Positions 11,498-61,100 of a DNA stretch of 64,000 bases are shown in pieces. Position 1 is the stretch's first letter. Each line of letters begins with the position of its first letter. A program made the translations under genes and the position numbers. Under the pieces are notes generated by a model, which was given only the letters and a program-made list of their open reading frames with translations, made no database searches and was not told the origin of the DNA. Source of the DNA: Eledone cirrhosa (taxonomy: Eukaryota); contig OZ024740.1 in the NCBI GenBank assembly GCA_964016885.1, positions 355,942,001 through 356,006,000 of the forward strand, given 5' to 3'.

Positions 11498-11975
11498 CCA
11501 CCAAAATTGCGTTATAACCATACACAATATACACACACACACTCACATATATACATATATAATATACCTATATATTCACGTGTTTTTCAATGCTTGCATT
11601 GGTTATATATACTAGCTGACGTACCCAGCTTCATCCGGGTAAACAGATGATAAGAGAAGACAGGTAAAAGAGAAAATGACTGTATTGGATGTTTGTCTGG
11701 TTACAGTATGAGGCGAGTCCGTGGTGTTTGTGTGATACCAAAAACAGTAAAAAAAATCTTCCAGATATACCAGATTCTTCGTTGTACCGTTTGTGCATAG
11801 CATATGAACAATTCTAGGTGCTCCCACCTAGAATAGTGACCTCTAGGAGATGGTTCATCTTTTGCCTGACTGTAAAACGTGAATCTTTGCATAGACGTGG
11901 TTGTTCCACGTTTCTCAAAAGGATGATGGAAGTTCCAATCTTTTATATTATATGTAGATATAGATATAGATAATT

Positions 11976-12020
11976 AATATAAAAGATGTCCGTCAATGTA
12001 AAAAAAGGTCCCAATTTACT
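11976..12020. repeat. 45-bp direct repeat, copy 1 (downstream of RepHel and the ribozyme)
   Basis: AATATAAAAGATGTCCGTCAATGTAAAAAAAGGTCCCAATTTACT; 42/45 identical to 16934-16978. Confidence 0.9.
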
Positions 12021-12133
12021 TGAAATGGTTTATACAAATGTCAAATTAATATGGATATGGATAACATGCTTATCTATAAGCGGTCAGCTATAAAACTACA
12101 AATTATATGACACAAAAATTTATTCAGTAATTT

Positions 12134-12212
12134 CCAGGCTCTTAGCCACTGAGTATTAGACAGTTAATATTGCCCAGAGTTCAACTCGAGGAGGTGGCCT
12201 GGTTTGTACTCC
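12134..12212 (-). ncRNA. HDV-like self-cleaving ribozyme (candidate)
   Basis: Minus strand GGAGUAC-AAA-CCAGGCC-ACC-UCCUCGA-GUU-GAACUCU-GG-GCAAUAUUAACUGUCUAAUACUCAGUG-GCUAAG-AGCCUGG maps element by element onto the antigenomic HDV fold (P1 with G1.U wobble, P2, P3, L3, P1.1, P4, J4/2 with catalytic C). One mismatch each in P1, P3 and the top of P2. Confidence 0.8.
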
Positions 12213-12562
12213 AAATGGCGGATCCTTCTACTTCGAAAATAGAATCCTTTTTCAATATTACTCTAGCCCTGGCCGGCCATAAGCCCCAAACGTTTTGCCA
12301 GACTCAGCATATGATGAGGTTTTATTACCACCGCTATCAGAAGCGATAAATTTGAAGGCAATTTCTACCAATACTTGTTGTTTATTATTGCTCATAACGA
12401 CAATAAATGACATTGAACAGACATGATAACTGTCAAAGCTCACAATACTGATCAAAGGACACCAATGTCTGAATCATTTACATCGAATATTCATAGCAGT
12501 GAAGGCAATTTCTACCAATAGTTGTTGGTATTTATTGCGCAACATAGCAGTGAAAGTAATTT

Positions 12563-15500
12563 TTACCAATACTGTAATACTCTGTTAGTGATATCAATTG
12601 CAAATTTTATACCACCAGGATCGCACACTCGAGATGCAGCAACATACAGTTGCCTATGGCTGAATGCTGGATCATTCAAGTAGACACCGACTCGCTTGAA
12701 AGTCTGTCCCTGTGCCTTGTTGACAGTCATGGAGAAGGCCAAATTGACGGGAAACTGTCTCCTTTGCCAAATGAATGGCAGCAGATCTTCACTTGGTCTC
12801 AGCATGATCCTCGGAATGAGAACCGATTCCTCTCTGCCTGGGAGTTTAGCTTCTAAAACTCTTCCGTTAATCAATCTCTCAATAATCAATCTGGTACCAT
12901 TGCAAAGACCCATTTTATGATTGATATTTCTAAGCAATATAATTGGCATACCCCTTTTCAACCTCAAAATATGTGGGGGGAATCCGGGTATTTGAAGTGA
13001 ATTCAGATACTCAGTCGGAACATCCATATTGTTCTGCTGATTAGGCTCCATTGCATCCGCACTGACGGTCAACCATTCCTCTCCAGGAAACATTCCGGCT
13101 ACTTGTGAATTTATTTCATCGACCGTTGCATTCGTGTGAGTTAGAATAACGCGTTCCGATATCCAGGAGATATTCTGCCAAAAAGCATTCAAATTAGGGG
13201 ACATCCAGTCAATCAATGCTTGGCGGTCCAGTGGCATGACCAAATGGTCTGGGATTCTTACAGTCTGATTATCACCAACGTGTGGCAATTCATCGTTTCC
13301 CAACTGCATCAACCATATGTCTCAGCCTCTTCGTTTTGCCCGAACATACGAAGTCGCATATTATCGTGTAATCGCAAAACTCTGAAATGGCGCCACAACG
13401 GGGACTTTTTCAGACATGCATCGACAATTTGCGCTCTTTGAGCATTCCTAACAATTGGTAGCACCTGTCTGAAATCGCCACCAAGAACGATAGTCTTACC
13501 ACTGAATGGCAGGTCACTACCGCAGATATCTCTCAAAGTTCTGTCAAATGCCTCCAGCAAATATCTGTGTGCCATTGGAGCCTCGTCCTAAATAATCAGA
13601 GACGTATTGCGTATGAGGCCCGCGAGTTCGCTTTGTCCTGTAATGTTACAGACACTCAACTCATCCGGAGCCAATGGAGCCTTGAAGCATGAGTGGAAGG
13701 TCCTTCCACCACTCAGCAAAGTGGCAGTGATCCCACTGGTGGTCACAGGGAGAGCAATCTTCCTCTGAGCTCTGACTGCGATAACATAGTGTTGAAACAG
13801 AATGTCTTTCCGGTGCCTCCTGGAGCATCTATGAAAGCACAAAGTTGCTCATTAGTGGAAATCGAGTGGAGAACGCCATTGCCCAATTCTCTCTGAGATT
13901 GGGTCAACATTGGTATACGTTCATCCACAATACGTTGCTGTTCCAGTGGATCAAACTGGAATAGTTCCCTCCGATCGAGTGGCAACCGTCTAAGCTGCAA
14001 TCTCATGTTCAATGCTAAGACACGTTGCCGCATTTCTTCATCAGGAATTGCCAAATTGAATCTGTTAAACATTTGAAATGAACTTCAAGCAGTTGCTCAA
14101 TATTGAGCAAAACAATAGCTTTCATCAAATTTTCATCATCGACCTGAAGATGATGCCTAAAATCATCAGCCATAATTCCCCAATGGCATTCAAATAACTC
14201 TCTTGGATCGGCAGGATTGCAGAATCCTAGAATCGTGACAAACAACTGCCTTATTTGAGCTGGCATCTGTGTTGTTCCTGCAGCTTCCATTGCGTTATTC
14301 CATTCAGCGTCATCCTGAAGGAGTCCCAGATGCTGACACACAGCCTGGTATGTTTCATATTCCACGCCATTGATTGTTTTCAAATCAGCGAAGCTCTGTT
14401 TACCTCTCGACAAATCATTATGCAACAGAATTCGGAGATAAAACACATCACCAGATGCTGGATGGACATTACAAACCCGTCCAATAGTCACGAATCTCAA
14501 CTTTTGTTTTCTATCATTCCATTTCTTTCCCTTCTTATCCCACGTATAGTGCGAAGGGAAATCGCAGTTGAGTTGCCTTTGATCCGGGTTCAAAGCATGT
14601 TCCCTATTATGCTTGAACCACTCAGTCAATTCTGTCTTAGGAGGTGGTGCGTTAGCAATTCTTTCGACACCTCTTCTAGTGTCCTGAAAACAGACCATTT
14701 GCCTATATTCTCTAAGTGAACTGTTAGTTTCTGAACTCTGGGTTTGCGTTCATTGAGATCAAAATCGAACAATCTCCAGCAAGCTTCGCTAGATCCAATC
14801 GAGCGAACATCCTGGAACCTGCCAACTTCATCTCCTTGGTTCGTTTCCTCATTCCTGACATTGATCATTGCTCGATCATGACCTTTGTAAACATATTTGA
14901 ATAGATATTTGCAAGCTTTCACTGAGCTACAAATTTCCACATTAATATGACAACGATATTTCATAATCAAATATGGATTGTATGGCGCAACCCATTGATT
15001 TGTAACCTGTCGACCATTTACATTTTCGACCAAACCGCCATCTGCAGGCGACCGTCTTCTGTATGAGGGATGAGCATCCCCATCGTTCCAGGAAGTGTTC
15101 GTGACAAAATATTTCGGAAAGTGCTTACTGCATTGGCCATTTTTCATGCAAGGCGCTTTCCGATTTGCCACTCCGCATTGGTTGTGCACCATTGACTTTG
15201 CCACCAAGTTGCGTAGTGCACAATATCAGGACGGTCCTTTGGCTGTTGTCCTGGCAAAAGTGCATCCTTAATATCAGTCCAGTCAGGATTGCAAGCAACC
15301 GTTATAAACAAATCTGGCTTTCCAAACTTTCTGACAATAGCCATTGCATCCTGATAGCGAATGTTCATATATCTCGGGCTACCGATGAACGACGATGGCA
15401 AAATGATGCGTCGACCAATTTGCTTGTAATTAGCATCATCGGCTGTTATCGCATCCTGTATATTATTATACAATTCAGCTCTGATATGTTGCTGATGTGT

Positions 15501-16919
15501 AGCTATATAATTTAGCCTTTGATTTTCGATCTTTGCGAATGCCATATAACAGTATTCCTGGAACAATCTGCTGGCTTGAAATAGCACATTTCTCTGTTGA
15601 TTCCTCTCGTTCAAATGGAACGCGTAAAAGCCGCGAATCGAATTATTGTGTCTATTGCCACCTCCCTATTGATGCTGATTCTCATGATCATCTTAATGAA
15701 CAGACATGTTCCATCCATTTTCACCTTTTGGGAATAAAAGAACATAATGCAATGGATCATATGCCCTATTTAACTCATTGATTGTCTTGAGACCACCATC
15801 TCTGCGATTGAGGACAATATCTCTCGATCCAGGCTTATCGTCCATCAACACAGCAACTTCACGAAATCCTTCAGGGGCATTATATCGCCGTTAGTGTTGA
15901 TTCCTTGGCATTGCGTCAGCCTTAATCACCAATGTTTGCTGCTGAACATTTTGCGGTTCAGCCACCAACATGAAATCCATAACATAAGGATTACACTGTC
16001 TAAGCCATGATTGCAAATCACGGATCAAATCACTTAACCTTTGCTGTTCAAGTTCAGTTATATTTCCCGGCAACTTCGTCCAACCGATCCTGATATCCTC
16101 CTCCGATTCACTATAATCTGGATCGTTAACGTAAATTTGAGCGAAGCGAGGCCTCTCTCCTGAGGTAACTTCTAAATTACCGATACAATGATACAAACGG
16201 CCTTGAATGACTACATTCGGTTGCCATGCTCCACTCTCAAACATCTCACTAACTCTCTGCGATGCTAAAGCTAATGAATTGTTAATTTGCCGCGAATATT
16301 TGCGCAGTAATCTACCTCCGTCTCCTTGATCACTCTATATACTTAGTATTTTAAACTCCGGTGACTCCTCATCATCCGGCATTCGCAAGGGTTCTAGTTG
16401 AACTGCTCCTTTATGACAGCACATTGTGGTCCACGTCTTTTTGTGCCTCAATGTGGACACAATGTGGACACTCTGTTCGTCAATCAATCTGAAAATGACA
16501 CGGTTGCCATGATCCATTTTTAATATCATTCGTTCGCCTTCTAGCCTCTTTACTGGAATGAGGCTCACTTTGGCGACACATTCTCTGAACTTCTGTATTG
16601 TGCTGCGCTATTCAGCCAGCTCCTCTTCATCCATCGCAGCACGCCGTTGCTGCTGAATTATGGCCATCTGCTGATGATGCTCAGCCAGTTCGTCTTCAAC
16701 CATCGCATCATGCCTTCGCTGCTTGGCTCCAGTGTTTCGTTGGCGTTGATCAGCCAGCTCCTCTTCATTCATGGCGGCACGTTTTCGCCTCTGAAGTTCG
16801 GCGTTTCGATAGCGCTGCTCGGCCCGTTTTTCTTCATTGCTGGCTGCACGCCGTCGCCCCTGTAGTTCACTGTTTGATAAAATCGAATTGCTTTTATTAT
16901 CAGTGTTCATTTTGAGCAA
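12563..16919 (-). pseudogene. Helitron Rep-PIF1 helicase (RepHel) gene, broken by frameshifts, stops and an internal deletion
   Basis: Successive ORFs give an N-terminal ~22-aa charged repeat, CC..G.V.L, QGRLYHCIG, PRFAQIY, IILPSSFIGSPRYM..YQDAMAIVRKFGKPDLFIT, KYLFKYVYKG (Y2), DAPGGTGKT (Walker A), GGDFRQVLP, GLCNGTRL, QFPVNLAFSMTVNKAQGQT and FSHRQLYVAASRV. Confidence 0.95.
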
Positions 16920-16933
16920 TTGTCAGAATAATA

Positions 16934-16978
16934 AATATAAAAGATGTCTGTCAATGTAAAGAAAGGTCCCTATTTACT
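16934..16978. repeat. 45-bp direct repeat, copy 2 (just upstream of RepHel)
   Basis: AATATAAAAGATGTCTGTCAATGTAAAGAAAGGTCCCTATTTACT. Confidence 0.9.
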
Positions 16979-17539
16979 CCCTTCACAACTCTGTGTATGT
17001 TAGACTGACAGACAGGCACACAGACAGATAAACTGAGTGGCGATTGTGGAACGCCACACACATACACGCATGGAAACGTGCACACGCACACAAACTTACA
17101 CACGCACACACTCACACATATTGATAGTTTTTACTTTCTGTGGGACGCTGCACGCACGCGCACACACATAAACATACGCGCACGTACATGCACACGCACA
17201 CATGTTAATAGTTATTGAACACAGCGTTCACACTCTCCCCTCTCACTCCCTCATTGGCATTATGCATATTAATTTCAGTTTGGCGTCGTTGAGGTGGACG
17301 GAGTTGTTTGAAACCTATGAACCAATGATAATCGAGAATTATGACACACGGAATACTGACGTTCTTCAAATTAATAAATAGATATAGTTACAAAATATGG
17401 TTAATAATTCTGATAACATATCAATAACAATTGTGAAGAGGAGGAGAAAGACAGTGGTGGTAGTAATGATGGTGTTGATGATGCAATAATTATTTGTAGT
17501 GTAATAAATTTCTTTTTAATTGGTATGTCTGGAGGAATA

Positions 17540-19373: not shown

Positions 19374-20672
19374 ATCATCATCATCATCATCATCACCGTT
19401 TTACGTCCGTTCTTCCACGCTAGCATGGGTTAGACGGGTTGTCCTGTTGTGGGCAGTGTCTGGTCGGCTGACCATGCCTTGCTCATACAGGAACTGATCT
19501 GGCTTGATTTCTACAGCTGGATGCCCTTCCTAACACCAACCTCATTTACAGTGAGTGCTGGGTGCTTTTTCGTGGCGCCTACACGTCCACTTTACAGTGT
19601 GGGCTGGGTGCTTTTTTGCCGTGGCACCTCCACGACCACCTTGCGGTGGGGGGAGTGGGGGCATATTGTTTATATGCTTCAGCATGTACCCATGGGAGGT
19701 CGGGTACCCTGTATTACTGCGTGACGCCAGAAGTCACGGTCGTGTGTCATTGTCTTTGAGAGGTGTAGTTGGGTAAGGTCGGCTTTTATCACCTCATCCC
19801 AAGTCATCTTGGGTCTCCCCACTCCGCGGTTTCCATCAACTTCTAGTGCTCTGCACCTTTTTATGCAGCTGTCATCCTTCATACGCATCACATGTCCATA
19901 CCAGCGTAACCGCCTCTCCTGCACGCAGCATTTGATTCCTCTTATGCTCAGTCTCTCTCTCAATTCCTTTATGCTTTGTCGTTCACGTATATTACTGTTA
20001 CACATCCATCGGAGCATGCAGGCTTCGTTTCTCTCTAATCTACGTAAGTCTTCCACCTTCAGCGCCCAGGTCTCACTACCATGCAACATCGCTGTTCGGA
20101 TACACGCATCATACAGTCTGCCTTTCATTCTGAGGGAGAAGCCTTTTGCAGCTAGCAGTGGTAGTAGTTCCCTAAACTTCTTCCATCCCGTTCTTATCCT
20201 ATTTATTGTACTTTCTGAGCACCCACCTCCGTTGCTAATTCGGTCACCTAGGTAGCAGAAGCTGTCTACTGTTTCTACAGGGCCCTCCCAGAGATTGGTG
20301 GTACTTGTTTCCTGTGGCTGTTTGCTTGCTGTTTCAGCACAGCTGCTGCATGTGAATCCTACATTCTTAATTAAGCTTCCTGAGATCCCGCTACATCTCT
20401 TGTGTACCCATTGTTTGCATTTGGGGCAGAGAATGGAGTTCCTACCTACACCTTTCCTACATACTGAGCAAGGCCATTTCCCTGAGGGGATCTGGGTTCT
20501 GTTTTCTCGTCTACTTACAAGGACCTTAGTCTTTGTCATGTTGACTTTGAGGCCTTTTCTCTCTAGTCCCTGCTTCCAGGTTTGGAATTTATTCTCTAGT
20601 TCTACCATAGATTCAGCTATGAGTGCGAGGTCATCAGCATACAGGGGTTCCCATGGGCATCTGGTCTTAAAC
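19374..20672 (-). mobile_element. RTE LINE (family 1), 5'-truncated, young
   Basis: Open frame with LYADDLAL, a CSVC..C..C..H..C..C..C finger, FCYLG, MLHGSETW, RRLRWYGHVMR and GRPK.TW; then 3' UTR and (GAT)n tail. Confidence 0.95.
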
Positions 20673-20682
20673 TGTATATATA

Positions 20683-20714
<32 letters not shown>

Positions 20715-20718
<4 letters not shown>

Positions 20719-21282
20719 GGAAAAAATGAAACAAAATTTTATTTCTCACTCTTAGTACGGCTGTTACTTAAATATAAGTATGTATATGTACATACATATA
20801 TGTATACTGACGTACAGTAGCATGTATATATATATATACATACATGCACACATATATATATATGTACGTATGGATTCACCGAACATTTATTATATTGCTC
20901 GGTTTGTTTGTAAACAAACATCCCGAATTAAGCCATACAGTGTTTAGCAGTATGTTAGGCTGAGCAGCTGTTAATATGCATAAGGAAAGTATATACTTTC
21001 AGACGTTCAATCATCTGGCAGGAAGGTATACGGTGCTGACGATAGCTAATAAGCTTGAAACTAGTACATCGTTCCTTTGTCAGTGTTGAACAAAAGGGCA
21101 ACTATGGTTGCTAAACACTGTACGGCTTAATTTGGGATGTTTGTTTACAAACAAACCAAGCATTATAATAAATGTTCGGTGAATCCATACGTACATATAT
21201 ATATATGTGTGCATGTATGTATATATATACATACTACTGTACGTCTGTATACATATATGTATATATGTATACATACTTATAT
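20715..21282 (+). mobile_element. Fold-back non-coding element with central hammerhead, in a (TA)n tract
   Basis: Inverted arms 20772-20949 and 21109-21282 enclose a 159-bp spacer containing the ribozyme. Confidence 0.8.
21030..21072 (+). ncRNA. Minimal type-I hammerhead ribozyme, intact core
   Basis: Stem I ACGGUG/CAUCGU, core CUGACGA, stem II AGC-UAAUAA-GCU, GAAAC-UA-GUA with palindromic stem III (ACUAGU). Predicted cleavage after 21066. Confidence 0.85.
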
Positions 21283-36637: not shown

Positions 36638-39315
36638 TATCATCATCATCATCATCACCGTTTTACGTCCGTTCTTCCACGCTAGCATGGGTTAGACGGG
36701 TTGTCCTGTTGTGGGCAGTGTCTGGTCGGCTGACCATGCCTTGCTCATACAGGAACTGATTTGGCTTGATTTCTACAACTGGATGCCCTTCCTAACACCA
36801 ACCTCATTTACAGTGAGTGCTGGGTGTTTTTCGTGGCGCCTACACGTCCACTTTACAGTGTGGGCTGGGTGCTTTTTTGCCGTGGCACCTCCACGACCAC
36901 CTTGCAGTGAGGGGTGTGGGGCATATTGTCTATATGCTTCAGCTTGTACCCATGGGAGGTCGGGTACTCTGTATTACTGTGTGACGCCAGAGGTCACGGT
37001 CGTGTGTCATCGCCTTTGAGAGGTGTAATTGGGTAAGGTCGGCTTTTATCACCTCATCCAAGGTCATCTTGGGTCTCCCCACTCCGCGGTTTCCATCGAC
37101 TTCTCGTGCTCAGCACCTTTTTATGCAGCTGTCATCCTTCATACGCATCACGTGTCCATACCAACGCAACCGTCTCTCCTGCACACAGCATTTGATTCCT
37201 CTTATGCTAAGTCTCTCTCTCAATTCATTTATGCTTTGTCGTTTGCGTATATTACTATTACACATCCATCAGAGCATGCAGGCTTCGTTTCTCTCTAATC
37301 TACGTAGGTCTTCCACCTTCAGCGCCCAGGTCTCACTACCATGTAACATTGCTGTTCGGATACACGCATCATACAGTCTGCCTTTCATTTTGAGGGAGAA
37401 GCCTTTTGCAGCTCGCAGTGGTAGTAGTTCCCTAAACTTCTTCCATCCCGTTCTTACCCTAGTTATTGTAAATTCTGAACACCCACCTCCGCTTCTAATT
37501 CGGTCACCTAGGTAGCAGAAGCTGTCTACTGTTTCTACAGAGCCCTCCCAGAGATTGGTGGTACTTGTTTCCTGTGGCTGTTTGCTGTACCAGCACAGCT
37601 GCTGCATGTGAAGCCTTCATTCTTAATTAAACTTCCTGAGATCCCGCTACATCTCTGGGGCAGAGAATGGAGTTCCTACCTACACCTTTCCTACATACTG
37701 AGCAAGGCCATTTCCCTGAGGGGATCTGGGTTCTGTCTTCTCGTCTACTTACAAAGACCTTAGTCTTTGTCATGTTGACTTTGAGACCCTTTCTTTCTAG
37801 TCCCTGCTTCCAAGTTTGGAATTTCTTCTCTAGTTCTACCATAGATTCAGCTATAAGTGCGAGGTCTTCAGCATACAGGAGTTCCCATGGGCATCCGGTC
37901 TTAAACTCCTCCGTTATTGCCTGCAGGACTATGATGAATAGGAGGGGGCTAAGAACAGAGCCCTGGTGGACCCCAACCTGTACGCTAAATTCCTCGCTAT
38001 ACTCATTGCTAATCCTAACTTTGCTGACTGCTCCCCTATACATGACTTGTACCGCTTTCACAAGCCATTCATCTACTCCTAGTTTTCTAAGAGCCCACCA
38101 GATTACAGCACGTGGAACTCTGCCAAAGGCTTTCTCAAGACCGACGAATGCCAGGTAGAGTGGCTTACTTTTAGCTAGGTACTTTTCCTGTAACTGCCTC
38201 ACAAGGAAGAGGGCATCAGTAGTGCCTCTTCCTGGTACAAACCCAAATTGCATCTCATCTAGTTTCACCCGGTCCCTAATCAACTGTGCTATAACTCTTT
38301 CTGTTACTTTCATGACCTGGTCCATCAGCTTTATACCTCTATAGTTTCCTCTATCTAGTGCATCACCTTTACCTTTGTAGCAGTTGACAATGATGCTACT
38401 GCACCGATCTTTTGGTATGACATCTTCTAGTATTACCTGGTTAACAATACGTGTGGTTATAGTGTGACCTACAGACCCAGATGCCTTCAGCATCTCGGCA
38501 GCTATACCCGATGGACCGGTTGCCTTCCCCATCTTCATATCTTTGATTGCCTTACTTACTACGCTGCTGCTGACTTGTACTGCTGGCCCCTCTTTAGGGT
38601 CTACTTGGGGTAGGGTCTCTTCTTCCCATGCATTCTCCTCATTTAGTAATCTATCATAATGACTCTTCCATGCATCTTTCTTCTCAGCACTTGTGAGGGA
38701 AAGCTCACCTTTATCATTCTGGATACACTTCTCTCCAATGACATCACAATTCTCTCTGACACACTGCCTCACAATCTTGAACACCTCCTGTTTCTGGTCC
38801 TCACGTTGCAAAACATGCTTGAATTTTCTATCCTCTGCTTCCCTCCTAGCTAAGTATACTTGTCGCCTAGCTTCCCTCTTGGTTTCTATGTAATGTACCC
38901 TGCTCCCCCCGTTCTTCCATTCTTTCCATGCCTGTCTCTTGGCCTTAACTGCCTAATCTACCTTATTGTTCCACCACCAAGACACTCTCCTCCTGCTTGT
39001 GATCTTACTCCAGCCACAGACCTCATCCGTCACCTCTAGTAAGTTATTTTTTAGGAACTCCCAGTGCTCTTCTACATTGAATGTCTCTATCTGTTCTTCT
39101 TTACTGTCGTAGGCGTTGAGTAAAATATCTTTAAATCTGTTACTGGTTGAGGGGTCTTTCAGCTTCCAGATCTTTCTTCTCAGGTTGGCCTCTGTTTCCA
39201 GGTTCGTCTAGTTCTGACTGTGAGGTCACTGACAACTAAGCTATGTTGGGATGCACATTCCTCACTAGGGAAGGCTTTTGTGTTTAGGACCGTCCATCTG
39301 TCACATCCTCTGATG
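36638..39315 (-). mobile_element. RTE family 1, 2.7-kb copy (end of endonuclease, RT, 3' UTR)
   Basis: ORF 37627-38811 with KGKGDALDRGNYRGIKL, QFGFVPGRGTTDA, GVHQGSVLSPLLF and YAEDL. A ~22-nt deletion at ~37656 shifts the frame, and there are stops upstream. Confidence 0.95.
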
Positions 39316-58086: not shown

Positions 58087-60290
58087 CATCATCATCATCA
58101 TCATCGTTTAACGTCCGTGTTCCACGCTTGCATGGGTTTGGACGGGGGTTTTCCTACTTGAGGCAAGAGTGATTATCTTGCTCGCATAGGACTATCTGGC
58201 GAGTTTTCTACAGCTGGATGCCCTTCCTAACACCAACCACATTTACAGTGTGGGGCTGGGAGGTTTTTACCGTGTTGCCTACACGGCCACATTACAGCGT
58301 GAACTGTGTGTTTTTTTTACGTGACACCTACACGCTCTCATTTGTTTCGGCCTGGATGTTGTGGCACCAACATAACTTTACATTGAAAGGGGCGGTGTGG
58401 ATGGGGTGGGGGTGGTGGGACGGGGGTGTATTTTGTTAGAGATGCCTACTGACTGTAGTAGGTTTTACTTTGTATTTAGGTAAGGCGGGTCTTCTCTATT
58501 ACTGAGTACCGCCAAAGGTCTCGGTCCAGTGACATTGTCTTGGTGAGGTGTAAGTGTGTGAGGTCGGAATTTATCAGCTCGTCCCAGGTTTTTCTGGGTC
58601 TGCCTATTCCGTGGCTACCGTCTATCTTTATTGCCCTGCACTTTGTTATACAGCTATCGTCCTTCATGCGCATCACGTGACCATACCAACGTAGCCTTCT
58701 CTCGAGTAAACAACATCTGATCCCTCTTATTTCTAATTTTTTCCTTAGTTCGTTTATGCTTTGCCGTTCACGTATATTACTATTACACATCCAGCGGAGC
58801 ATGCAAGCTTCGTTTCTCTCTAGTCTGCGTATATCCTCTGCACACAATGCCCAGGTCTCACTGCCATGCAACATTGCTGTTCGTATGCAGGCATCGTACA
58901 ACCTGCCTTTCATTTTTAGGGAGAACCCTTTAGCGGCTAATAGTGGTATAAGCTCTCTGAACTTTTTCCATCCAGTTCTGACTCTAGCTACTGTACTTTC
59001 AGAGCACCCTCCCCCACTGCTGATTTTGTCACCCAGGTAATGGAAGCTGTCCACTATTTCTATAGAACCCTCTGCGCAGTTGAAAGAGCTAGTATCTTGT
59101 GGGCACTTGCTGCTACTTATTGCACCAGAGCACCGGCCACATGTAAAATCTATGTTCTTAGTTAGCTTACCTGTGATCCCACTACATCTTTTATGCACCC
59201 ATACTTTGCATTTGGGACACAAAATGGAGTTTCTACCTACGCCTTTCCTACACACTGAGCATGGCCACTTCCCGGAAGGGACCGCCGCCTTATTTTCTTT
59301 CTTACAAACTAGAACTTTAGTCTTAGCCAGGTTAATTTTAAGTCCTTTTGATTCTAGGCCGTGCTTCCATGTTTGGAATTTCTTCTCTAGCTCGGCCATT
59401 GATTCAGCTATGAGTGTTAGGTCATCTGCGTATAGGAGTTCCCATGAGCAACCGGTCTTGAACTCCTCTGTTATAGCCTGAAGGGCAATAATAAATAGTA
59501 GGGGGCTGAGAACAGAGCCCTGATGGACGCCAACTTTTACGCTAAACTCTTCACTATATTCGTTGTTAATTCTAACCTTGCTGACTGTTTCTTTATACAT
59601 GGCTTGTATAGCTCTCACAAGTCAACACCTAGTTTTCTAAGAGCCCACCAGATAATGGAACGGGGGACTCTGTCGAAGGCTTTCTCCAAGTCGACAAAAG
59701 TTAAGTATAGGGGTTTACTTTTAGCTAGGTACTTCTCCTGTAGTTGTCGTACAATGAAAAGAGCGTCTGTGGTACTTTTGCCTGACACAAACCCGAACTG
59801 CATTTCATCTAGATCAATTCGCTCTCTGATTAGTTGCGCTATTACTTTTTCCGTGACCTTCATGACCTGGTCGATTAATTTAATGCCTCTATAGTTACTC
59901 CTATCTAGGGCATCTCCTTTACCCTTATAACAGTTAACGATGATGCTGCTACGCCAGTCCTTCGGAACAACCCCATTCTGTACGACTTGGTTGACTATCC
60001 GGGTGACCATGGTGTGTCCCACCGTACCGGATGCCTTCAGCATCTCGGCAACTATTTCCGAAGGCCCAGCCGCCTTACCCGTCTTCATATCTTTGATTGC
60101 CTTACTTATTATACTACCCTCGACTAACACTGCTGGTCCCTCTATTGGGTCGATGTGGGGGAGACTGTCTTTCTCCCATTTATTCTCCTCATTTAGTAGC
60201 CTTTCATAGTGACACTTCCAAACTACCTTCTTATCAGCGTCGGTGATGGCAAGTACGCCGTCATCATTAAGTACACACTTCTCCCCGACA
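58086..60290 (-). mobile_element. RTE family 1 subfamily B, 2.2-kb copy
   Basis: ORFs 59615-60289 and 58476-59618 give a complete RT (FVDLEKAFDRV, QGSVLSPLLF, YADDL) with one frameshift at ~59616; 3' UTR and (GAT)n tail. Confidence 0.95.
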
Positions 60291-60440
60291 TATATATATA
60301 ATGTATATATATAATGTATATATAATGTATATACATATAATATATATATATGTATATACATATAATATATACATATAATATATATATATATATAATGTAT
60401 ATACATATGTATATGTAAAAGAGTATATGTATGTATATAC

Positions 60441-60471
<31 letters not shown>

Positions 60472-60492
60472 TGTATGTATATACGTATGTAT

Positions 60493-61100
60493 GTCAGGTC
60501 ACCAGTTGGTGCTACTGGTAACATGTATCCCAGTACAACCTGTCCCATGGTCGGGTTGTTGGCGACTAAACTGGCAACCCCACCAAGGTTTCTTGGTGAG
60601 GAGGGTGACTTTGGACATCCTGCAGGACTAAAAACAAAACCTGTCAAAGGGCAAAGGAGCTCTTAAGAGTCAATGGCCATCCAAAATCACCGGGAGAGAT
60701 GACCCCTAGCCTTTGTCAAGGCAGAATTCTAGGAGAAGGAAAACTCTGATATAACACCTGCAACTCTGATGGTATCCAATGATGTTGACTTGTTCTTCTT
60801 TTTGGTAAATATCATCTTGGTTAAGAGAGTGGGACTGGCTTTGTGCAGTGCCTTTGCTCACTATAAAAGCTTCACGGCACAGGCATTGCTTTATATCTGG
60901 AGATCTCTCTGCGCTTGTTGTCACATGGTACCATGGGCCCAGCACTGTGTGTCAATAATTGTCACAAGTGTAGTGTTTGTACCAGAGTTTTCAAGTCGCT
61001 GGCTGGACTAAAAAGTCACACTCGTTCAGCGCATCGGTAGGGGTTCTCCTACATGGATATAAAGTAGTGACCGTACTCGAAAACGAGTTGGCAGCCACCA
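60493..61100 (+). mobile_element. Bipartite (internally deleted) RTE/BovB-like non-autonomous element in (TGTA)n
   Basis: Structured 5' part with CTAGGAGAAGGAAAACTCTGA (a motif I recall from RTE 5' UTRs), fused to 60960-61040 encoding CHKCSVCTRVFKSLAGLKSHTRSAHR* (BovB-type terminal zinc finger), with 3' hairpin CTCG-AAAA-CGAG. Confidence 0.8.

Follow-up and report, generated by a model that had tools for sequence, protein, structure and literature searches.

The window analysed here, a stretch of 64,000 nucleotides of the Eledone cirrhosa genome (contig OZ024740.1, positions 355,942,001 to 356,006,000 of the forward strand), contains a canonical Helitron on its minus strand, with a motif resembling an HDV-like ribozyme positioned between the RepHel gene and the 3' end of the element. 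The element has TC and CTAG ends, a subterminal hairpin, an insertion point between A and T, and a RepHel gene of the type with an HUH Rep and a PIF1 helicase. The features at the locus, in the order in which they would be transcribed, are as follows.

11612..17382, minus strand: canonical Helitron, with its 5' TC at 17382 and CTAG-3' at 11612; sister-copy homology stops at both of these points, and the insertion site is between A and T.
16929..16978, minus strand: 50-nt direct repeat, first copy, directly before the RepHel ATG.
12563..16910, minus strand: RepHel gene (Pfam Helitron_like_N and Pif1_2B_dom), broken in this copy.
12321..12326, minus strand: AAUAAA, a candidate signal that precedes the predicted cut by 109 nt; others are at 12381-12386 and 12531-12536.
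12134..12212, minus strand: HDV-like ribozyme motif, with the predicted cut 5' of G12212, matched by descriptor and scorer, and by Rfam alignment in a sister copy.
12212-12206/12182-12176, minus strand: P1, with the G1·U wobble present.
12206..12212, minus strand: 5' strand of P1; A12207 is a copy-specific mismatch and is U in the focal Helitron family.
12202-12197/12139-12134, minus strand: P2, 6 bp.
12196..12202, minus strand: 5' strand of P2; C12196 can form a further pair with G12141, leaving A12140 bulged.
12183..12195, minus strand: P3-L3-P3, with P3 at 12195-12193/12185-12183 and L3 at 12192-12186.
C12194·U12184, minus strand: middle pair of P3, mismatched throughout the focal Helitron family.
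12174..12182, minus strand: 3' strand of P1 and the GG of P1.1 (12175-12174).
12148..12164, minus strand: P4 hairpin, weak (4 bp, -2.2 kcal/mol).
12142..12146, minus strand: J4/2, with the putative catalytic C12145.
12134..12141, minus strand: 3' strand of P2.
12119..12124, minus strand: AAUAAA, 10 nt past the ribozyme and followed by a U/GU-rich tract, a candidate poly(A) signal that the predicted cut would sever.
11971..12020, minus strand: 50-nt direct repeat, second copy.
11612..11970, minus strand: 3'-terminal module, itself TC...CTAG, kept by non-autonomous derivatives.
11623..11640, minus strand: subterminal Helitron hairpin.

The RepHel gene of the window copy is interrupted by frameshifts and stop codons, and has lost 213 nt at about position 15219, including the HUH motif, and about 200 nt at about position 12575, including the true stop. 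A preliminary description of the locus, made from the sequence alone, placed the ribozyme about 350 nt after the helicase stop, but this spacing is an artefact of the second deletion, which removes the true C-terminus, and the distance typical of the family is about 507 nt. The consensus of 20 copies is an open RepHel ORF of 1532 amino acids, from which 19 copies differ by 1.7–3.5% and one by 7.0%. The family is young, with most copies 2–3.5% away from the consensus. It has about 200 members in this genome, and seven of 30 copies run head-to-tail into another 5' end.

Several aspects of the organization of the element were observed alongside. The 50-nt direct repeat (16929-16978 and 11971-12020) flanks RepHel and the ribozyme together, and one of 62 classed copies of the repeat (L002) fuses the 5' to the 3' flank as a derivative with neither gene nor ribozyme; derivatives of the focal Helitron in which ~16673 is fused to ~11988 are also found. 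The last 360 nt of the element resemble a mini-Helitron (TC...CTAG), and their contig coverage is several-fold above that of the ribozyme region. Near-identical copies (L066-L093; C16, C19, C20 and C27) recur at a spacing of roughly 100 kb and apparently sit within a large tandem segmental duplication.

HDV-like ribozymes cleave at their own 5' edge and are recognized by a set of paired and joining elements, of which P1, P2, P3, L3, P1.1, P4 and J4/2 had all been proposed for the minus strand of this locus, and each was found where it had been placed. J4/2 contains C12145 followed by purines and aligns to J4/2 of the Rfam model, L3 has the U, the CC and the conserved G, and P1.1 is formed by CC and GG. 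P1, for which 6–7 bp starting from G1·U are expected, has all seven pairs in the family consensus and six of the seven in the window copy, and P2, in which the pseudoknot should be closed by 5 bp or more, has 6 bp together with one pair over the bulged A. The 3-bp P3 departs from the canonical form, with two of three pairs in the focal Helitron family, as opposed to three of three in the families described below as A, B and C.

On both strands of the 64-kb window, the motif at 12212-12134 is the sole match of a strict descriptor and of a relaxed scorer. The window copy scores 30.2 and the family consensus 34.8, values reached by one and none of 494 dinucleotide shuffles, respectively, and the strict descriptor finds six matches in 60 shuffled windows, one of them of equal compactness; both tools were designed after the motif was known, such that these shuffle statistics are optimistic. 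Because the first descriptor accepted only folds with G preceding the catalytic C and with 6 nt or more in the P4 gap, the majority of family A copies and the whole of family B escape it. Nested folding energy alone is not significant for the window motif (z -0.28), nor is it for perfect relatives (z -0.67 and -1.48), and pairing of the ribozyme with a potential upstream anti-ribozyme strand is no better than in shuffled sequences (328 of 500 as good). The hairpin noted just upstream of the ribozyme in the preliminary description is present, although its stability is no better than that of shuffles (z +0.5 and -0.6); a significant upstream hairpin is seen in family A only (z -5.3).

Comparison with Rfam models, which had been suggested as a check, gave a divided outcome. 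In a search of 501 nt, a near-consensus sister copy aligns over the full HDV-F-prausnitzii model (27.9 bits with E=0.003, below the gathering score of 44), but none of six sister loci of the focal family reaches gathering scores and the window copy, searched within 16 kb, has no HDV-family match at E<=5. The Rfam HDV models are narrow, since the perfect fold of L204 (family A) is also below gathering, at 20.8 vs 50 bits, and that of L289 (family B) has no HDV match.

Within the focal family the fold is present in all 30 of the best-matching sister copies, and a family-specific ribozyme pattern gives 207 matches genome-wide, compared with none for controls. In 40 further pattern loci (C1 and C2) a helicase lies upstream in 34 and the Helitron 3' end is present in 36, with at least one of the two in all 40. 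The motif is thus a fixed part of the Helitron and not a retroelement fragment confined to one copy, the outcome that had been named as contrary to the initial proposal; recurrence of the same setting in unrelated Helitrons points the same way.

The mismatches in the window copy had been attributed to decay, and for P1 this holds, as A12207 is private to this copy and the pair is restored in the sister-copy consensus. The P3 C·U (12194·12184) does not revert, being present in 40 of 40 copies, 16 of which are otherwise intact, and the extra A at 12140 is likewise family-wide. Because it is fixed in all 40, the P3 mismatch must be older than the burst rather than a product of decay after insertion, and the amplification to more than 200 copies occurred with it already in place. 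Two sequencing runs show the consensus letters alone at the P3 site with no second letter, both runs being from one sample and possibly non-independent. A perfect P3 is found in just three copies genome-wide, with one to two expected from the T-to-G rate (0.53% per T site). The idea that a perfect P3 has been retained in older copies is not supported: the three are 7.1, 4.1 and 3.3% diverged, compared with 1.3–5.3% in the 40 others, they form no clade, and their number fits chance, although one of them, L298, may be older. The mutation level of the ribozyme (1.75%) compares with 1.6–2.5% in its flanks, in a family that is young.

Judged from its sequence, the master element of the focal family already carried the P3 mismatch and was probably a slow cutter, and the family ribozyme may be weak or dead; that of the window copy, with mismatches in P1 and P3 and next to a dead ORF, is probably weak or inactive. 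Among non-LTR HDV-like ribozymes, the parts of Eickbush et al. 2013 (PMC3774820) consulted here report that mismatches are found in P3 and may be tolerated, with cleavage of up to 32% by a jewel-wasp R2 ribozyme of this kind, whereas one mismatch in P1 may be enough to abolish activity.

An HDV-like ribozyme after RepHel recurs in at least two unrelated Helitron families besides the focal one, and probably three, and in all four families it is on the sense strand downstream of the RepHel stop. Families A, B and C have scores of 35–45, compared with shuffle maxima of 30.6 and 29.7 (63 and 42 Mb). Family A is a Helitron of G001, in which a perfect minimal fold lies within the element, 464 nt beyond the helicase and in sense orientation, at six of six loci. 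Two of these (L195 and L196) have intact RepHel ORFs of 1627 amino acids, with 37% amino acid identity to the focal RepHel, and there is no AAUAAA or AUUAAA between the family A stop and ribozyme. Family A accounts for 12 of 16 core-pattern matches in G001, and a helicase is located upstream in nine of the ten that were examined. Three core matches in G001 belong to a 1.4-kb non-coding repeat (L245:6607-7997, L246 and L247), two of the three copies of which have a perfect HDV-like fold. G001 itself is a bacterial GTDB representative bin titled Dehalococcoidia with many contigs containing Helitrons and other transposons (L191-L196, L204, L210 and L212), and these contigs have the appearance of mis-binned animal DNA.

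Family B is of the Helitron2 type and is found in the same genome as the focal family, with the fold located 0.7–1.4 kb after the stop of a RepHel-UCH gene, again in sense. The ribozyme is present in eight of the 20 DUF6570 loci examined (of 54 matches), four of the eight being intact, and the family B pattern has 125 matches genome-wide, compared with three for controls. When subfamilies are compared, 46 of 47 core positions are identical, vs 162 of 183 upstream, 66 of 100 in P4, 67 of 97 downstream and 964 of 1061 in the ORF; by a hand calculation this conservation has p ~0.02 relative to the upstream rate, and a far smaller value relative to the downstream rate. The base of P4 is still paired in both subfamilies in spite of the divergence of P4. 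Thirty further copies comprise 16 that are intact, all behind a RepHel 3' UTR, and 14 with a broken G1 pair, which are members of one rearranged lineage and represent one event. Broken passenger genes were observed after the family B ribozyme at L289:4798-6221, with NADAR-like fragments below the Pfam cut-off (E 0.003 and 0.019) and a segment that is SGNH-hydrolase-like by eye, without a Pfam match.

The third, family C, is represented by L244, a Helitron2-like element of G001 in which a perfect fold is located 2.4 kb after a DUF6570-RepHel-OTU ORF, in sense. A second locus has the same order and has kept the end of the ORF, with the ribozyme decayed. Family C is probably a third unrelated ribozyme-bearing Helitron family, with an undefined element end. 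The interval between its RepHel-OTU gene and ribozyme (L244:6900-7930) contains what appears by eye to be the end of a piggyBac-like transposase with a Cys-rich tail, neither with a Pfam match.

Most of the other Helitrons that we compared lack the motif. An alignment of 43 RepHel proteins recovered 105 loci, 74 from metagenomes (kept of 380), 30 from genomes and one viral, of which 64 reach the end of the helicase; with eight excluded for having less than 200 nt downstream, 56 foreign loci were scored, and the six with a ribozyme are all family A, leaving 50 without. The single-protein scans returned no relatives among viral or metagenome contigs. No ribozyme was found in Helitron family 2 of this genome (13 loci, ~40% amino acid identity and a short 3' end), in the G001 L191 family, in the youngest intact Helitron2 family of this genome, which has long inverted repeats, or in the nearest relatives of the focal family whose DNA was compared (L141 and L190). 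In a FastTree phylogeny of 139 sequences, the focal family is one of 43 members of a clade (support 1.0) to which family A does not belong, and the sisters of family A are without the motif. This patchy pattern implies that the motif was gained repeatedly, exchanged as a module or lost many times and, as most Helitrons lack it, the ribozyme is not needed for transposition. Cross-family MAFFT alignments are not structure-true, and differences between families at paired positions are not taken as covariation because each fold was chosen by descriptor. The pattern search of five other genomes gave no canonical matches in three and GC-rich matches in two. We observed a very young Helitron2 family (L278-L280; C5, C14 and C3) with many near-identical copies and open frames of ~2230 amino acids ending in a UCH protease domain; it is without a ribozyme and, from its sequences, is possibly still active.

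A second source of HDV-like folds in this genome is retrotransposons. A canonical-core pattern has 13 matches, nine in one RTE-type family (L219, L222-L228 and L230), two in the focal Helitron and two that are chance-like. The RTE-type copies have the HDV-like core at the 5' end and an APE endonuclease ORF downstream, the RTE assignment being by eye, and most adjoin TA repeats. The focal motif does not behave as the 5' ribozyme of a non-LTR element, in that it has no downstream ORF, it has a Helitron context in 40 of 40 loci, and the likeness between the RTE and the focal Helitron 3' region is limited to a shared 9-nt core.

We propose that the focal ribozyme would cleave the RepHel RNA about 500 nt after its stop and in this way probably set its 3' boundary, a reading for which we judge the prospects to be evenly balanced, and which we favour over three alternatives. 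RNA polymerase would transcribe RepHel and continue past it, and the nested double pseudoknot would form behind the polymerase and cleave its own 5' edge by means of the J4/2 cytosine. The coding RNA would thereby be split from the terminal hairpin or long inverted repeats, from passenger genes, from host DNA, or from the unit that follows in a tandem array or circle; Helitron circles with joined ends are established, according to the parts of PMC4778049 drawn on here. Given the sense orientation and downstream position in four of four families, cleavage would leave the coding RNA as its upstream product. Since the ribozyme would act on RNA only, inserted copies could decay neutrally and lineages mobilised in trans could lose it. 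Two considerations temper this: the several AAUAAA signals upstream of the focal ribozyme mean that ordinary polyadenylation could make the cut redundant, and because Helitrons capture 3' flanking DNA, a downstream position is also expected under capture.

It is rather unlikely that the ribozyme is instead a self-dampening switch, in which the poly(A) site would lie beyond the ribozyme, the cut would remove the tail and the RepHel mRNA would be destroyed, such that a weakened ribozyme would give more transposase and a burst. The AAUAAA and U/GU-rich tract 10 nt past the focal ribozyme are consistent with such an arrangement, as are the lack of a canonical signal before the family A ribozyme and the heavy amplification, in both ribozyme families of this genome, of a lineage in which one pair is broken; a 3'-UTR hammerhead lowers Clec2 expression, which we count in its favour. 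However, there is an AAUAAA or AUUAAA upstream of the ribozyme in the focal family and in family B, perfect folds are kept by the youngest B subfamily and by family A, and the B lineage with the broken pair has undergone rearrangement and is probably non-autonomous. The useful product could also be the downstream RNA, either a passenger message or a unit-length RNA running into the next RepHel ORF on circles or arrays, and the ribozyme would then make 5' ends as in R2 and RTE, although we consider this less likely again. Such a role is established in non-LTR retrotransposons (PMC3414825 and PMC3774820, in the parts consulted), the sub-threshold NADAR-like fragments lie behind the L289 ribozyme, and the head-to-tail focal copies (seven of 30) and the Helitron circles described in the same parts of PMC4778049 would suit it. 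Yet there is no ORF between the ribozyme and the 3' end in the focal family, family A or the L281 subfamily of family B, and the L281 subfamily has kept its ribozyme without passenger genes there.

Of similarly low probability is that the motifs are functionless cargo, 5'-end pieces of retrotransposons captured by 3' read-through, with folds that are relics and, in the focal family, dead since before the burst. The patchy distribution on the RepHel tree, the fixed P3 mismatch of the focal family, the chimeric look of the 3' region, the presence in this genome of an RTE whose core is HDV-like and the further G001 ribozymes within a non-coding repeat would all be accommodated. Capture does not readily account for a likeness to RTE that ends at the 9-nt core, sense orientation in four of four families, a family B core that is conserved while P4 and the flanks diverge, or a perfect fold in the intact family A. 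A boundary-setting role remains our preferred reading. More speculatively, and with appreciable doubt, active HDV-like ribozymes could be a recurrent, selected module of animal rolling-circle transposons, and perhaps of other DNA transposons, gained or kept several times over Helitron and Helitron2; they would cut transposase RNA to unit length on circles or tandem arrays, replacing or preceding poly(A) processing, with ribozyme strength tuning output and single broken pairs preceding bursts.

To our knowledge, genomic HDV-like ribozymes have been explained almost wholly as 5'-end processors of retrotransposon RNA, and transcript ends and limits on RepHel output have been little studied in Helitrons. 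The motif shares with the 5' ribozymes of non-LTR elements (R2, R4/Dong, RTE and L1Tc) the nested double pseudoknot, a 7-bp P1 with G1·U, a 3-bp P3, a 7-nt L3 with U, CC and G, P1.1, the J4/2 cytosine and carriage by a mobile element. It differs in that a Helitron is a DNA transposon without an RNA intermediate, and in that the ribozyme is downstream of the ORF with the coding RNA as the 5' product; a conserved ribozyme after the transposase of such an element therefore needs another job, such as 3'-end formation, read-through insulation or self-limitation. Theta ribozymes act in the removal of 3' trailers from tRNAs. They are from phages and associated with tRNAs, whereas the upstream RNA here is a eukaryotic transposase mRNA, but they are similar in having an HDV-like fold beside a gene, as described for gut phages in the parts of PMC10879173 drawn on here. 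The consulted parts of PMC6431247 and bioRxiv 10.64898/2026.07.22.740005 describe hammerheads in Penelope-like elements, Terminons and retrozymes, which are likewise self-cleaving RNAs in the terminal region of animal transposons, although with another fold and in retroelements whose RNA is the template for transposition.

The host elements resemble Helraiser and other canonical Helitrons, as well as Helitron2 and Helentrons, as these appear in the consulted parts of PMC4778049, in their TC...CTAG ends, subterminal hairpin, A|T insertion, RepHel with HUH and PIF1 domains and head-to-tail junctions. They are unlike described members of these groups in having a ribozyme, none being described in the literature that we found and most Helitrons tested here being without one. 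No HDV-like ribozyme in Helitrons was reported in the literature searched, which took in few subscription papers and not Repbase, and supplements of published surveys could list such loci. This is a known RNA fold in an apparently unreported setting that recurs over Helitron lineages. By implication, DNA transposons may be the source of some 'orphan' genomic ribozymes, and Rfam models may miss them. The focal, A, B and C ribozymes are short natural constructs, with both perfect and weakened variants. Elsewhere in the window, fragments of non-LTR reverse transcriptases were observed at 19679-20767, 37627-38952 and 58476-60493, two of them with a PHD finger.
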